From Desulfobacterales bacterium (GTDB lineage Bacteria; Desulfobacterota; Desulfobacteria; Desulfobacterales; C00003060), in NCBI GenBank assembly GCA_023129535.1, contig JAGMBW010000071.1:1-54977 (forward strand): a stretch of 54,977 nucleotides of DNA. Reading direction: 5' to 3'. The notes below the pieces were generated by a model, which was not told the DNA's origin, did no database searches, and was given only the letters and a program-made list of their open reading frames with translations. Numbering within the stretch: position 1 is the stretch's first letter; each line of letters starts with the position of its first letter. Below are positions 43,814 through 52,725 of this stretch, one piece after another. The translations under genes and the position numbers were made by a program.

Positions 43814-44584
43814 CTAATCCGGAACATATTGTACTTTATTCCTACAATGTCTACATTCCATAACTCTTCCATCAGTTTTAAGTACTATATCTCCATCACA
43901 ATGTGGACATTTCTCTTTGCTTGTCGGCCCTGCTGGGGGCTTTGTGGACTTGCTTTTATGTGGCTTAAGAGGCGCTGGAGTGTACGGCTTAATTGGCACA
44001 GGGGTGTATGGCTTCAGTGGTGCTGGACTGTACGGCTTAAGCGGTGCTGGAGTGTAGGGCTTCGGTGGTACTGGTTTGTACGCTTTGAGCGGTGCTGGAG
44101 TGTAGTCCTTTAATGGTGCAGGCTTGTAGGCTTTAAGGGGCACGGGAGTGTAGTCCTTTAACGGTACAGGTTTGTAAGGCTTAAGAGACGCCGGAGTGTA
44201 GTCCTTCAATGGTGCCGGTTTATACGGCTTAAGCGGTGCTCGGGTGTAGGGCTTGAGTGGAACCGGAGTATAGTCCTTTAATGGCACTGGCGTGTACGGC
44301 TTAAGAGCTGGCGTGTACGGCTTCGATGGTTCTGGTTCGTATGCCTTGAGCGGCGCTGGACTATAGTCCCTCAATGGCGCTGGTTTGTACGCCTTAGTAG
44401 GGACAGGGGTGTACGGCTTGAGTGGAACTGGCTTGTATGGCTTAAGCGGCACAGGAGTGTAGGCATTCAGTCGCTTAGGCTTATAGGAAGGCCTGGATTT
44501 GGATCTGGGATGGTCTTTACCCCGCTTTATGAATTTTTCCCTCCACCTTTTATCCTTAATTATCTCTTGAGCCTTTTCTTGCAT
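43814..44584 (-). CDS. Proline-rich octapeptide-repeat protein (about 20+ x PLKxYxPx) with a C-terminal zinc ribbon
   Basis: The repeats span about 43940-44470. The C-terminus has CPHCDG...CRHC. Confidence 0.7.
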   Translation of the reverse strand: MQEKAQEIIKDKRWREKFIKRGKDHPRSKSRPSYKPKRLNAYTPVPLKPYKPVPLKPYTPVPTKAYKPAPLRDYSPAPLKAYEPEPSKPYTPALKPYTPVPLKDYTPVPLKPYTRAPLKPYKPAPLKDYTPASLKPYKPVPLKDYTPVPLKAYKPAPLKDYTPAPLKAYKPVPPKPYTPAPLKPYSPAPLKPYTPVPIKPYTPAPLKPHKSKSTKPPAGPTSKEKCPHCDGDIVLKTDGRVMECRHCRNKVQYVPD

Positions 44585-48402: not shown

Positions 48403-48502
48403 CCTGCAACTCGCAACTCGCAACCCGCAACCTGCAACCTGCAACTTGCAACTTGCAACTTACCCACTACCCACTGACCACTGACAACGGACCACTGATC
48501 AC
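48403..48502. repeat. (CTGCAAC/TCGCAAC/TTGCAAC)n then (CCACTGA)-type arrays, right flank of gene B
   Basis: The reverse complement of the units equals the GTTGCAG units on the left flank. Confidence 0.85.
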
Positions 48503-49579
48503 TTTCTTCCTCGCACTCACCCACCCACATCCGGAGCATCCTTGCTCTAACAATTCCTTTATGGAAGCCGTTCTTCCGCACTGGGGGCAGGTCTCAGTTT
48601 CTTGCTCTGTCTGGGATTCTACCCGCCCGCTTATGATTCTCTTGAGTATTTTGTTCCATTCCTCCAGGGCATCACCCGAAAAGGTGGCCACTCTTCTTGT
48701 GCCGTTAGCGGCATAGAGGAGATCCAGGACCTTCTCTTTCTTCAGAATATTAGTGAGGTCTCTTGTTTCCATCATCGAACCTATTATTCCACTTACAGGA
48801 ATCTCTATGACTATCCTTCGTTCAAAGTTATACCACCAACACACTCTTTTATCAGTAAGATACAAGTAACCGGGCCTCCAGGTGTCCTCTATAATGCCCT
48901 CTGCATCCATCAGATACCACATCTTCCCACTGCAAATAAGCTGCTCTCCCTGGGCTAAGAACTCTGCCGCCCTTTCTTCAAGAACTGGAATCTCTGGATC
49001 TTTTTTCAGGACAAGCCCCAGCTCTTTCATCCTTTTCTCTATGGTCTCTTTCAGTTGATCTATATCTAGACCACTCAGTCTTGCTATCTTGCTCCCTTCC
49101 AGAAGCAGATATAACTCTTCCCTCTCTTTTTTTTCGGTGAAATGCTCCCCTTTCCTGATCAGCAGACTCTGTATCTTCATCAGGGGAGTCTCGAATAAGA
49201 CTTCCCCAAAATCTTCATGATAGAGGAGCAACCTCTCGCTGGTCAGGTAAAGGTAGCCATATCTCCAGGCTGTATATATCCCTTCACTTGAGTAGTATGC
49301 CCCTAACATCTTGAGGATGACCTCTTCTCCCTGCACCATGCAGCTTTTTTTCTTGCTTCTGTGCTCCTGCTCCCAGTCCCGGATACGTTCATCCCACGCC
49401 TGCATCATCCCGTATTTCAGCATGGTATCCATACCGGCCAGGGCTGCCCTCAGATTAACCCCGATTAAAGGAATGCCCGCAACCGATACGATCAGGTCGG
49501 CATGGATCACCAGGCCCTTGTCCAGCACCCGATCAAGAAGATCGACTAGAGTTGCGTTGGTGTTACGTTGAGGATCCAT
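48467..49579 (-). CDS. GvpA/GvpJ-domain protein fused to two PH/GRAM-like domains and a C-terminal zinc ribbon
   Basis: LVDLLDRVLDKGLVIHADLIVSVAGIPLIGVNLRAALAGMDTMLKYG is a GvpA core. There are two GYLYLT(S/D)(E/K)R modules, and CPQCGR...GCSGCGW. The ATG at 49579 begins MDPQRN. Confidence 0.85.
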   Translation of the reverse strand: MDPQRNTNATLVDLLDRVLDKGLVIHADLIVSVAGIPLIGVNLRAALAGMDTMLKYGMMQAWDERIRDWEQEHRSKKKSCMVQGEEVILKMLGAYYSSEGIYTAWRYGYLYLTSERLLLYHEDFGEVLFETPLMKIQSLLIRKGEHFTEKKEREELYLLLEGSKIARLSGLDIDQLKETIEKRMKELGLVLKKDPEIPVLEERAAEFLAQGEQLICSGKMWYLMDAEGIIEDTWRPGYLYLTDKRVCWWYNFERRIVIEIPVSGIIGSMMETRDLTNILKKEKVLDLLYAANGTRRVATFSGDALEEWNKILKRIISGRVESQTEQETETCPQCGRTASIKELLEQGCSGCGWVSARKKVISGPLSVVSG

Positions 49580-50151: not shown

Positions 50152-51252
50152 TCAAACAAATGAGTATGGTGCCCAAGGCCCGGTATATCGAACGGAAAAA
50201 CCCTCCAGGGCATCGATCTTTTCCACCTCATCTCCCAGCCCTTTACTCCCGTCCCCAGGAAGCAAACAGGATAGATTCATGAGCATCTGTTTGTTTTCGT
50301 CCTCTGTTTTTTTTGTCTTTTCTACACGGAGGTCATTCACGTGGGGTTTGATTCTCTCATAGAATTCCTTAAAGTATCGGTCTGCCTGCTTTTCCATCTC
50401 CTTTTTCAAAAGGTCTTCCAGTTTCTGCCTGTACATGTAGGCCAGGCCTCTCGGTTTGGACTTTATTTCTTCGTCCAACTTCTTTATTTCAACACTTTCT
50501 TCGGTAATCTTTTGAGCCATAACTTTAGAATCCCAAAATACCTGCACCCCGTATTCTGCCCTGCCTCTGACCTTTTCCATCTTCGCTTTCAGGTTTTCGT
50601 AATCCTCCTTTAACCAATTCCTCATATTCTCTTCCGGGTCAGAAGCCTCATTCCCTCGAATGATGGTGTCAAACCCCATAGGAAGCACGGTACCATATCT
50701 TTCCCAGGCCGCATCGACCACTTTTTGATGGGCCACTATCCAGCCTTTCACAACCTCTTGATCTTCTGATTGGTATGGCTCAGCAGGACAATTATGGACT
50801 ACGGCACAGAGATCTTTGTAAGGAATGCTATAGACCTCGTTGCCTTCTATGCCGATCCTGCCAAGATTTACGCTCTCGCTGCCTTCGACAATGCAGTAAA
50901 GGTATCTTCCGCTCATTAGTCCAATGTCCAATGTCAGAGGTCCAATGTCAGAAGACTGAGGTCCAGGGTCTGAGCTATGAGGTCCGACGTCCGATGTTCG
51001 GTGTCCGATGTCCGGTTTCCTACGACTTTGGACTTTGGACTTTGGACATTGGACGTTTTGAAATGCAACATCCATAGACAACGCCCCTTCCTCTTCCACC
51101 ATTTCTTCCAGAACCCCGGTAATGGAGTCCCGAATGGCCGTCCTGAGTTCTGGCAGAAGAGAAGTGCTTACTATTTCTCTTATCGTATCTTCATTCTCGG
51201 CAAGAATATCCCTTATCTCTTGCTTCACCATCTTTTTAATTGTCTCTTTCAT
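50152..51252 (-). CDS. gvpF: GvpL/GvpF family protein, core from the ATG at 50916; possibly carrying a repeat-linked N-terminal helical extension from 51252
   Basis: The core MSGRYLYCIVEG...YKDLCAVVH...WIVAHQKVV...VLPMGFDTI...RYTGPWAPYSF is a typical GvpF/L. There is no stop between 51252 and 50916, a segment encoded by the heptamer array, and no Shine-Dalgarno site before 50916. Confidence 0.8.
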   Translation of the reverse strand: MKETIKKMVKQEIRDILAENEDTIREIVSTSLLPELRTAIRDSITGVLEEMVEEEGALSMDVAFQNVQCPKSKVQSRRKPDIGHRTSDVGPHSSDPGPQSSDIGPLTLDIGLMSGRYLYCIVEGSESVNLGRIGIEGNEVYSIPYKDLCAVVHNCPAEPYQSEDQEVVKGWIVAHQKVVDAAWERYGTVLPMGFDTIIRGNEASDPEENMRNWLKEDYENLKAKMEKVRGRAEYGVQVFWDSKVMAQKITEESVEIKKLDEEIKSKPRGLAYMYRQKLEDLLKKEMEKQADRYFKEFYERIKPHVNDLRVEKTKKTEDENKQMLMNLSCLLPGDGSKGLGDEVEKIDALEGFSVRYTGPWAPYSFV

Positions 51253-51337
51253 GCTCTGCGCCTGAAGTCCAATGTCCGACGTCCAATGTCCGAAGTCCAA
51301 TGTCCAAGGTCGAAGGTCCGAGATCAAGGGCGATGAC

Positions 51338-51679
51338 TTACGACATTGGACCTTGGACATTGGACCTTGAACTGTTAGTTCCTTCCCACCTCTCCGGATT
51401 GATCATCTTATCTAATAGTTCATCCACAATATTATCCAGGCCGTCTCTTACCGATTTGACCGACTCGCTGATTCCCTGCTCCTTTTTCATCTCGTCGATT
51501 GCTGTGTCGAGATCCATCAATGCCTGTCCTAACCTCTCGGTCTCTTCTTCGGTGAGGCTTCCCCCTTCCATCCTTTTCAATGCCTGAAGTCTGAGGGCAT
51601 CCTTGATGATCTCGACCAGGGCGACGACTAACCCCATGACTCCGTGTTTGAGATTTTTCTCGTCAATGTCTATGGGCAT
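51338..51679 (-). CDS. gvpK: Gas vesicle protein GvpK
   Basis: GLVVALVEIIKDALRLQALKRMEGGSLTEEETERLGQALMDLD matches the GvpK signature. Confidence 0.8.
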   Translation of the reverse strand: MPIDIDEKNLKHGVMGLVVALVEIIKDALRLQALKRMEGGSLTEEETERLGQALMDLDTAIDEMKKEQGISESVKSVRDGLDNIVDELLDKMINPERWEGTNSSRSNVQGPMS

Positions 51680-51860
51680 AATCAGTGGTCAGTGGTCAGT
51701 TGTCAGTTGTTATTGGTCACATGTTGCATGTGGCATGTTGCAGGTTGCAGGTTACAGGTTGTGCACTCCCTCTCCCGTGACAGGATTTACGAAATCACCT
51801 CAGACGTCCGACTTCTGACCTCCGACCTCCGACCTCCGACTTCTGACTTTGGACCTTGAC
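51680..51860. repeat. Mixed heptamer arrays (CAGTGGT, GTTGCAG, CTCCGAC families)
   Basis: Read directly from the sequence. Partly complementary to the arrays at 52143-52365, so the two sets bracket the plus-strand small gene. Confidence 0.8.
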
Positions 51861-51911
51861 ATCGATTTCTTGAAATGCTATTATGAACATAAATTAGAGG
51901 AGGCCGGGAAA

Positions 51912-52142
51912 ATGGATGATATCAGCAAAACCGTAGGTGGTTTCCGAGCCGCTATCCAGGACCTTTTGGTCCCTGAGCTTAAAGCTATACAAAGAGAATT
52001 AAGACACCAGAGCGAGATATTGGGCAGGCAGCATATTAAACAAGAAGTGAGCCAATATACTTCCAAGACCAATGCCCTGGAAAAGCGCGTGGATGATCTC
52101 TGGGCATTGCTTAAAAGCTCTCGCTTTTTCCCTTCCACGTAA
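51912..52142 (+). CDS. Small coiled-coil protein, paralogue of 34218-34517
   Basis: AGGAGG Shine-Dalgarno site. MDDISKTVGGFRAAIQDLLVPELKAIQ is near-identical to the paralogue at both nucleotide and protein level. It is the only plus-strand gene inside the island. Confidence 0.65.
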   Translation: MDDISKTVGGFRAAIQDLLVPELKAIQRELRHQSEILGRQHIKQEVSQYTSKTNALEKRVDDLWALLKSSRFFPST

Positions 52143-52365
52143 GCATCTCCCCTTCTTTTTTTTTGTCCAAAGTCCGAGGTCCAAAGTCCAAAGTCGTATA
52201 TTGCTCTGACAAACGACAAATGACATTGGACATTGGACAGTAAGCTGTATCGTGCGTGTATCGTGTATCCAGCATCCTATATCGTGCAATGAGCAACAAG
52301 CAACGAGCAACCTGTAACGAGCAACGTGCAACGTGCAACCAGGAACGAGCAACCAGCAACTCCCT
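52143..52365. repeat. Mixed heptamer arrays (GTCCAAA, TTGGACA, GTATCGT, AACGAGC families)
   Basis: Read directly from the sequence. Confidence 0.8.
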
Positions 52366-52725
52366 CTACGGACTGATCTTTTGGGCCAGTGCCTTCGCCT
52401 TGGCACTGATCCAGCCGCACCAGGGGCAGCCGGTCGTTATAAGTTCCTCAATAGGAACCCTCTTTTCGCATTGAGGGCAATTTTCCCTGGCTATGAGTGC
52501 CTCTGTCCAGGCGGGGGTCTCCAAATTGGTTCCTGAAGGAAATTCCAAACCATACTTGGCTGCCGTCTCAAAGGATGCCAGGGCGGCCCTAATCTTGATC
52601 CCAAGCAGTTCAACGCCTGCCACAGATACGGTAATGTCTGCGTTAATGACCAATCCCTTATCCAGGATTTTGTCTATTACGTCAGCTAAACCGCCGCCAC
52701 CATTTCGAGATGGTTCTATAGCCAT
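52366..52725 (-). CDS. GvpA/GvpJ-family gas vesicle structural protein with a C-terminal zinc ribbon
   Basis: LADVIDKILDKGLVINADITVSVAGVELLGIKIRAALASFETAAKYGL is very close to the canonical GvpA core. The C-terminus has CPQCEK...GCPWCGW. Confidence 0.88.
   Translation of the reverse strand: MAIEPSRNGGGGLADVIDKILDKGLVINADITVSVAGVELLGIKIRAALASFETAAKYGLEFPSGTNLETPAWTEALIARENCPQCEKRVPIEELITTGCPWCGWISAKAKALAQKISP

Follow-up and report, generated by a model that had tools for sequence, protein, structure and literature searches.

Near the end of a 54,977-nucleotide stretch of DNA from a Desulfobacterales bacterium (positions 1 to 54,977 of contig JAGMBW010000071.1, assembly GCA_023129535.1; hereafter the window), a small gas-vesicle gene runs on past a GvpA-like core into a tail with four cysteines. 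Which gas-vesicle protein does this gene encode, and what might such a tail do? The open reading frame is genuine: the 119-aa protein transcribed from it in the original prediction proved correct on a direct codon check, and a GGAG lies about 9 nt 5' of the ATG. Its parts are as follows.

52366-52725, minus strand: gvpJ-ZnR, 119 aa, stop codon included in the coordinates (open reading frame list)
52576-52689, minus strand: GvpA-family core, residues 13-50, with the J/M-type motif IRAALAS (Pfam Gas_vesicle)
52489-52551, minus strand: GvpJ-specific linker GLEFPSGTNLETPAWTEALIA, residues 59-79, with F, P, G, and W invariant in 58 tails
52393-52488, minus strand: four-cysteine module RENCPQCEKRVPIEELITTGCPWCGWISAKAK, residues 80-111 (tail profile, 82.7 bits)
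52477-52479, 52468-52470, 52426-52428, and 52417-52419, minus strand: the cysteine codons of the module (read on the sequence)

Read directly from the codons, the tail is CPQCEKRVPIEELITTGCPWCGW. Its cysteines, C83, C86, C100, and C103, have the spacing CxxC-x13-CxxC, seen here as CPQC-x13-CPWCGW.

The Pfam match of the core (PF00741, residues 13-50, 60.4 bits) does not discriminate among family members because this domain is common to GvpA, J, M, and S. Model scores, signature, phylogeny, and gene order, all drawn from sequence, show that the protein is a GvpJ, a minor relative of GvpA, and not the main wall protein GvpA; the earlier description of it as a near-canonical GvpA was thus mistaken. 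The top NCBIfam match is halo_gas_GvpJ (NF046090; 101.6 bits, E 1.8e-29, residues 5-69), a model built for haloarchaea, whose curated cut-off of 125 bits this score does not reach. The GvpM model scores 57.4 bits, and the GvpA models NF006874 and NF046092 reach 53.8 and 45.6 bits, below their cut-offs of 100 and 112. The motif RAA(I/L)A is typical of GvpJ and GvpM, and RVVAA of GvpA (PMC9501494); the window protein reads NADI...IRAALAS followed by the GvpJ signature ASFETAAKYGLEFPSGT, and the form ASFETAAxYGLEFPxGT is shared with haloarchaeal GvpJ representatives. The protein shares 59% of its residues with a haloarchaeal-type GvpJ representative (P0223; 88% positives over 64 aa, YGLEFPxGT included) and 44% with a true GvpA encoded in a related cluster. 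The combination typical of GvpA, a DAW...EAR(V/I)VxA signature in a protein of about 67-80 aa without an extra domain, does not describe it. A tree of 136 A, J, and M cores (64 columns) resolved no more than its main divisions: A against J+M, a clade of M proteins, a clade of haloarchaeal J proteins, and cyanobacterial-type J. The first of these has 96 SH-aLRT and places the window protein with J and M. Over residues 1-59, the core can be aligned to the solved GvpA structures 8GBS and 7R1C without a gap.

Gene order points the same way. Downstream of gvpJ, the window contains:

51338-51679, minus strand: gvpK, next downstream of gvpJ (Pfam GvpK, 68.9 bits)
50152-51360, minus strand: gvpL, GvpL/GvpF family (Pfam, 237.7 bits; NCBIfam GvpL, 208 bits, above cut-off)
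48467-49579, minus strand: GvpM-type fusion with two PH/GRAM-like domains and the module at its end (halo_gas_GvpM, 95.3 bits)

This J-K-L-M order (52366-52725, 51338-51679, 50152-51360, 48467-49579) is kept in all 10 related clusters examined and matches the gvpFGHIJKLM operon of Halobacterium; gvpK itself is present in 71 of 80 related loci.

If the gene is gvpJ, where is gvpA? The assembly (2.9 Mb, 230 contigs, estimated 98% complete) has two Gas_vesicle genes and no more; both lie in the window, and each bears the ribbon. Genome searches detected no GvpG, a single GvpL/F gene, and no gvpF paralogues, and tblastn of the assembly found neither gvpN nor gvpO. The contig ends at 54977 inside the cluster, 2.2 kb upstream of gvpJ. 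A genome-wide search found a third Gas_vesicle gene, an open frame of GvpA length, in 19 of 22 relatives; the 10 that were read encode proteins of 67-70 aa and of GvpA type (MAVEK...DAWxRVSLVGIELLAxEARVV...YLKYAEAVGL). In relatives, gvpA mostly shares a contig with gvpJ and lies 4-31 kb upstream of it (31 kb and 16 kb in the two closest ones whose contigs are long), and GvpN, G, O, and F are also found in their clusters. Since the contig ends within the cluster and the relatives' gvpA lies further upstream, the absence of gvpA reflects a limit of the assembly and not biology. The window holds the distal half of a gas-vesicle cluster, whose promoter-proximal half probably failed to be assembled or binned. 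On the same grounds, the end of the contig and the upstream gvpA of close relatives, we rejected the idea that gvpA is missing because GvpJ replaces it.

These data also bear on whether the window protein could be GvpA itself, the main wall protein, with a tail of its own. It has a Gas_vesicle match, is very highly conserved, and is the best GvpA-family candidate in an assembly with no other short GvpA. However, its signature and model scores are of J type, relatives carry a separate gene of true GvpA length, and the distance of 16-31 kb between gvpA and gvpJ in the closest of them exceeds the 2.2 kb available here, making this reading extremely improbable.

A complete related cluster (L083) shows what the full gene set looks like. 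It begins with a sigma-54 regulator, GvpA, a 501-aa helical-repeat protein, a DnaJ-type zinc-finger protein, GvpN, and GvpF, continues with a Cdc48-like AAA ATPase, two more GvpF/L-like proteins, GvpG, GvpO, and a further DnaJ-type zinc-finger protein, and ends with GvpJ-ZnR, GvpK, GvpL, GvpM-PH-ZnR, a response regulator, and Hsp70. Its content identifies this cluster type as a bona fide gas-vesicle cluster. The 501-aa protein (L083:15061-16566, minus strand), encoded between gvpA and gvpN, has weak apolipoprotein-like helical repeats and might be the functional counterpart of the stiffener GvpC. The Cdc48-like double-AAA ATPase (about 710 aa; L083:10347-12479, minus strand), which is additional to GvpN, is also found in L095-L100 and L102-L105, so that within the phylum it accompanies clusters with the ribbon as well as clusters without it.

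To what extent is the tail a regular part of GvpJ? A word-indexed search returned 3968 matches, and the best 120 are all 111-172 aa long and 60-93% identical over their full length. The extension is present in all of these 120 GvpA-family homologues, each with CPxC-x13-(G)CPWC. The predicted cysteine pattern likewise survived alignment: the four cysteines are invariant in 51 homologues, together with P84, K88, G99, and W105, and Q85, P101, W102, G104, and S107 of the module are nearly so. The cysteines are also invariant in an alignment of 58 tails. Judged by this conservation, the tail is a conserved domain and not a product of read-through or an assembly artefact. An exhaustive search of 1.84 billion representatives recovered distant GvpJ-like proteins (41-55% identical) with the module, as well as haloarchaeal and other GvpJ proteins without it. 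The core tree needs 24 changes of ribbon state, and many of the apparently ribbon-less representatives look frameshifted or truncated (P0136, P0148, P0149, P0158, P0166, P0218, P0231, and P0236), so counts of natural ribbon loss taken from protein databases are inflated. Some GvpJ proteins, with or without the ribbon, carry a further C-terminal motif, (S)GNGHRxGE....(E)A(R/I) (for example, L047:10178-10399, L050:9068-9289, and representatives P0143 and P0140), which may be another short docking motif.

Tail-bearing proteins occur in at least 376 species genomes (one genome per species), and the best 80 loci (77 bacterial and 3 archaeal) span at least 17 named phyla. Bacterial carriers include Desulfobacterales, Syntrophales, Dehalococcoidia, Atribacterota, Actinomycetota, Acidobacteriota, Nitrospinota, Omnitrophota, and Bacteroidota, and archaeal carriers include Methanophagales and Methanomicrobiaceae; cultured Desulfoluna species, such as D. 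spongiiphila AA1 and D. butyratoxydans MSL71 (loci L084 and L092), also have the tail. The tail is almost confined to anaerobic lineages. Mean pairwise identity, taken over nine clusters that belong to different phyla, is 88% for the GvpJ core, 84% for the GvpA core, 80% for the GvpM core, 70% for the ribbon, 69% for GvpK, 60% for the J linker, 54% for the cluster Hsp70, and 50% for GvpL; the ribbon is thus better conserved than GvpL and Hsp70.

AlphaFold2 did not fold the core of the full protein confidently (51 homologues, pLDDT 57). Modelled alone (61 residues, 58 sequences), the tail contains a module with pLDDT 81-83, predicted as a strand, CPQC, a strand, a short helix (EELITT), GCPWC, and a helix (SAKAKALAQK). 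The four-cysteine module would most likely bind one zinc ion. Among curated zinc families, Pfam gave no match for the window protein, and the NCBIfam model RpoP reached 17.1 bits against a cut-off of 72. A COG-style label, "ssDNA-binding Zn-finger/topoisomerase 1", was a generic zinc-ribbon match and was not taken as function. Generic C4 zinc ribbons and knuckles (RpoP/Rpb12, YacG, AccD, and ribosomal proteins) likewise have two CxxC pairs about 13 residues apart, and Foldseek lists such proteins for the tail model, but no PDB match is better than E 0.9, so the fold of the module gives no functional hint. What sets the module apart from these generic ribbons is its pattern, CPxC-x13-GCxxCGW and then a basic helix, which is specific to gas-vesicle clusters; the module reaches no family threshold.

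A cysteine site of this kind could also act as a sensor. By analogy with the Cys4 zinc site of Hsp33, which is a redox switch, the module might sense oxidation or zinc supply and gate vesicle nucleation in anaerobes living near oxic-anoxic boundaries. Its near restriction to anaerobic lineages and the unusual richness of the cluster in Cys4 sites are consistent with such a switch; however, the conserved non-cysteine surface residues P84, K88, W102, W105, and S107 suggest a protein interface and not a bare sensor, and we regard a switch as very improbable.

The module is closely tied to gas-vesicle clusters. Of 401 genomes sampled evenly from the phylum, 35 have Gas_vesicle genes; the tail alignment matched 9 of these and 1 of the other 366. 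Seven of the nine have the J tail (the window's genome among them) and two have an M tail only, and the single match in a genome without Gas_vesicle genes is weak and contains an internal stop. With the module almost confined to gvp-positive genomes, a cluster-specific "handle" is a reasonable reading. The phylum has two cluster types, one cyanobacterial-like (L093-L102) and one haloarchaeal-like (L103-L105). Its ribbon-type clusters contain J-K-L-M, Hsp70, GvpO, and GvpM. Its ribbon-less clusters encode a cyanobacterial-type GvpJ (IAGDI...IRLVxCSVDKAxExGxDWW) that lacks the cysteine module, and no Hsp70 was found in the 12-20 kb examined, nor was any GvpM-type gene detected.

Another possibility is that the ribbon is a tag that marks the aggregation-prone J and M for chaperones of the cluster: Hsp70, Hsp20-like proteins, DnaJ zinc-finger proteins without a J domain, or an ArsA/Get3 ATPase. 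Hsp70 accompanies ribbon-type clusters in 3 of 3 cases in the phylum sample and in at least 43 of 80 loci, compared with 0 of 10 ribbon-less clusters, and a DnaJ-type zinc-finger gene lies directly upstream of gvpJ in the window, L083, and L090. The Hsp70 correlation is, however, inseparable from the shared descent of the cluster type, and ribbon-less clusters also have DnaJ zinc-finger genes (6/10) and ArsA (5/10). Moreover, Hsp70 usually binds unfolded hydrophobic stretches and not folded zinc modules. A chaperone tag appears improbable.

A handle shared by several components of the cluster was part of the original prediction, which assigned the same ribbon to the GvpM-type fusion and a related one to an octapeptide-repeat protein. 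The features concerned are:

48506-48595, minus strand: second module copy ETCPQCGRTASIKELLEQGCSGCGWVSARKK on the GvpM fusion (45.1 bits with the tail alignment)
43814-44584, minus strand: octapeptide-repeat protein ending in CPHC-x14-CRHC, outside the module family

The fusion has GvpM as its top NCBIfam model, with weak Pfam matches to GRAM/GLUE, and belongs to the M clade of the core tree (99 SH-aLRT). The ribbon at its end is indeed the same (BLASTP, 45% identity over 38 aa, E 1e-11). A tail profile of 32 positions, built from GvpJ tails only and run on a six-frame translation of the whole 2.9-Mb genome, picked out GvpJ at 82.7 bits and, at 38.1 bits (E 2.9e-9), the C-terminus of the GvpM fusion; no third match in any open frame of the genome reached E 0.4. 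The repeat protein is unmatched by this profile even at E 10. Its CPHC-x14-CRHC has another spacing, no Gly before the third cysteine, and no GW after the fourth, and the protein is present in only 3 of 80 related loci.

In the 80 related loci, the same profile detected every GvpJ, 34 GvpM tails, and a small gene (encoding about 55-145 aa) just downstream of gvpJ, in most loci directly after it. Its product contains two tandem copies of the module (one copy in two loci), with the consensus CPxCGxxVVKKELxKKGCYVCGW ... CPxCGxxVxxEELxEKGCYICG(W/Y), and belongs to no Pfam or NCBIfam family, giving sub-threshold matches only. A short charged N-terminal helix precedes the two CPxCG-x12-GCxxCGW modules, and examples are found at L012:2786-3214, L008:4223-4552, L058:10684-11094, L077:8910-9308, L022:10367-10672, and about 15 more loci. 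The window has no such gene between gvpJ and gvpK, where we find instead:

51680-52365, no strand assigned: gvpJ-gvpK spacer, 686 bp, with nested inverted arrays of a 7-base repeat around a plus-strand ORF

The arrays are paired (51709-51761 with 52308-52360, and 51823-51856 with 52165-52196) and bracket a 97-aa ORF on the plus strand (51849-52142), so that the spacer looks like a stem-loop cassette. The same position in relatives is occupied by the double-ribbon gene or by a gene of Hsp20-like type.

Among the 61 loci with both J and M, the ribbon is found besides J on M and the small protein in 13, on M only in 21, on the small protein only in 6, and on J alone in 21. GvpM thus carries it in 34 of 61 clusters, and the small one- or two-copy proteins occur in 19. 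An association between the GvpM ribbon and the small protein was considered on these counts (13, 21, 6, and 21; odds ratio about 2) and found unconvincing. Where J alone carries the ribbon, its consensus is unchanged (67.6% versus 70.4% pairwise identity), so ribbon-to-ribbon pairing is not an obligatory function. The shared handle therefore stands in part: the module is present on two GvpA-family proteins and is specific to gas-vesicle clusters, but the third protein lacks it and pairing between ribbons is optional.

What, then, might the module do on GvpJ? The region after helix 2 of GvpA lies on the outer surface of the vesicle (7R1C, 8GBS). GvpJ tolerates the loss of no more than 5 aa from its C-terminus, and its residues 81-114 are specific to the cluster (PMC9501494). 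This essential, lineage-specific C-terminus and the outer surface of GvpA, taken together, suggest that the module is this lineage's version of the GvpJ C-terminal part. GvpL is bound by J and M (PMC9501494), the contact between GvpA and GvpL needs J, S, and K, which have been proposed to seed the vesicle and may occupy its tips (PMC11445434), and J, M, and S are found in the bicones and not in the cylinder (PMC10903477).

The explanation we favour, and consider reasonably probable, is that the window gene encodes a haloarchaeal-type GvpJ with a putative, outward-facing zinc knob that docks seed proteins or braces the cone tip. In a haloarchaeal-like cluster (...F-G-O-J-K-L-M plus Hsp70 and Hsp20), the N-terminal 58 residues of GvpJ would form a GvpA-like helix-hairpin-helix unit inserted in the gas-facing wall, from which the YGLEFPSGT linker would lead outwards to the four-cysteine module of about 30 residues on the cytoplasmic face. 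GvpJ and GvpM would be minor, early wall proteins that seed the vesicle and remain in its conical ends. The module would serve as a rigid knob by which soluble assembly factors, GvpL/GvpK first and possibly the chaperones of the cluster, hold the seed proteins; alternatively, the seed proteins may brace each other at the cone tip through it. Both the outward position of the module and its partners (GvpL/GvpK or chaperones) we infer by analogy with these systems, and by the published J-L interaction GvpL would be the likeliest partner of GvpJ (PMC9501494, PMC11445434).

A purely structural role is possible, if rather unlikely. GvpJ-ZnR would then be a subunit of the conical-cap lattice whose ribbons touch neighbouring ribs or one another, as J-J or J-M pairs or with the double-ribbon protein as a link, and so stiffen or close the tip without recruiting any soluble factor. 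The whole protein, tail included, is as conserved as GvpA, as expected for a lattice contact; J is retained in urea-washed bicones, and some J mutants produce unstable vesicles (PMC11445434, PMC9501494). The module is also present on M and, doubled, on a small protein able to bridge two ribbons. Against such a brace, however, the unchanged consensus of the ribbon in the 21 of 61 clusters in which J alone carries it implies that heterotypic pairing is optional. More speculatively, and with little probability in our view, the Cys4 modules of GvpJ, the long GvpM, and the double-ribbon protein might interlock into a metal-dependent, possibly redox-sensitive hub that seeds the bicone apex. If so, zinc or the redox state would act as the switch for nucleation in many anaerobes, by way of a module without counterpart in model systems.

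Seeding is the least understood step of vesicle assembly, and GvpJ and GvpM are its prime suspects. In model organisms, the tails of these two proteins are disordered and lineage-specific; here, the tail is compact, strongly conserved, and probably metal-binding. A ribbon on J, M, and a free double-copy protein offers a defined handle for pull-downs and structural studies and for labelling the seed or the tip. Folded additions are evidently tolerated at the C-termini of both J and M, a property of use in the engineering of acoustic reporter vesicles. The ribbon also marks a widespread, chaperone-rich cluster type in anaerobes of sediments and the subsurface (Desulfobacterales, Dehalococcoidia, Atribacterota, and ANME-1-type archaea). 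Our literature searches returned no report of gas vesicles in these mostly sediment-dwelling anaerobes and no description of a GvpA or gas vesicle with a zinc ribbon. The papers retrieved on GvpJ and zinc do not appear to describe such a tail, and the zinc finger mentioned in one of them (PMC9501494) belongs to haloarchaeal GvpC.

That protein offers a partial parallel. The C-terminal domain of haloarchaeal GvpC has a reported zinc-finger motif (PMC9501494), and like the window GvpJ it would be a gas-vesicle protein of the outer face with a probable zinc site, but it belongs to a different family, that of the helical-repeat stiffeners. Other minor GvpA-family proteins are known in bacteria: GvpJ and GvpS of Bacillus megaterium, GvpA3 and GvpA2 of Serratia, and cyanobacterial-type GvpJ. 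Minor bacterial homologues of this kind are needed early and have been proposed to act as seeds and to occupy cone tips (PMC11445434, PMC10903477). The cyanobacterial-type GvpJ of the same phylum differs from the window protein in its signature and in lacking the cysteine module, and GvpJ of Anabaena flos-aquae has six 21-aa repeats (PMC10903477) in place of the Cys4 module. The closest comparison is with haloarchaeal GvpJ (Halobacterium salinarum, NF046090), which has the same core (NADIxVS...ELLGIxxRAAxASFETAAxYGLEFPxGT), the same J-K-L-M order, and likewise a functionally important, lineage-specific C-terminal part (PMC9501494). The tails differ: in the haloarchaeal representatives it is long and acidic and has no cysteine, and in the window GvpJ it is a compact Cys4 module.
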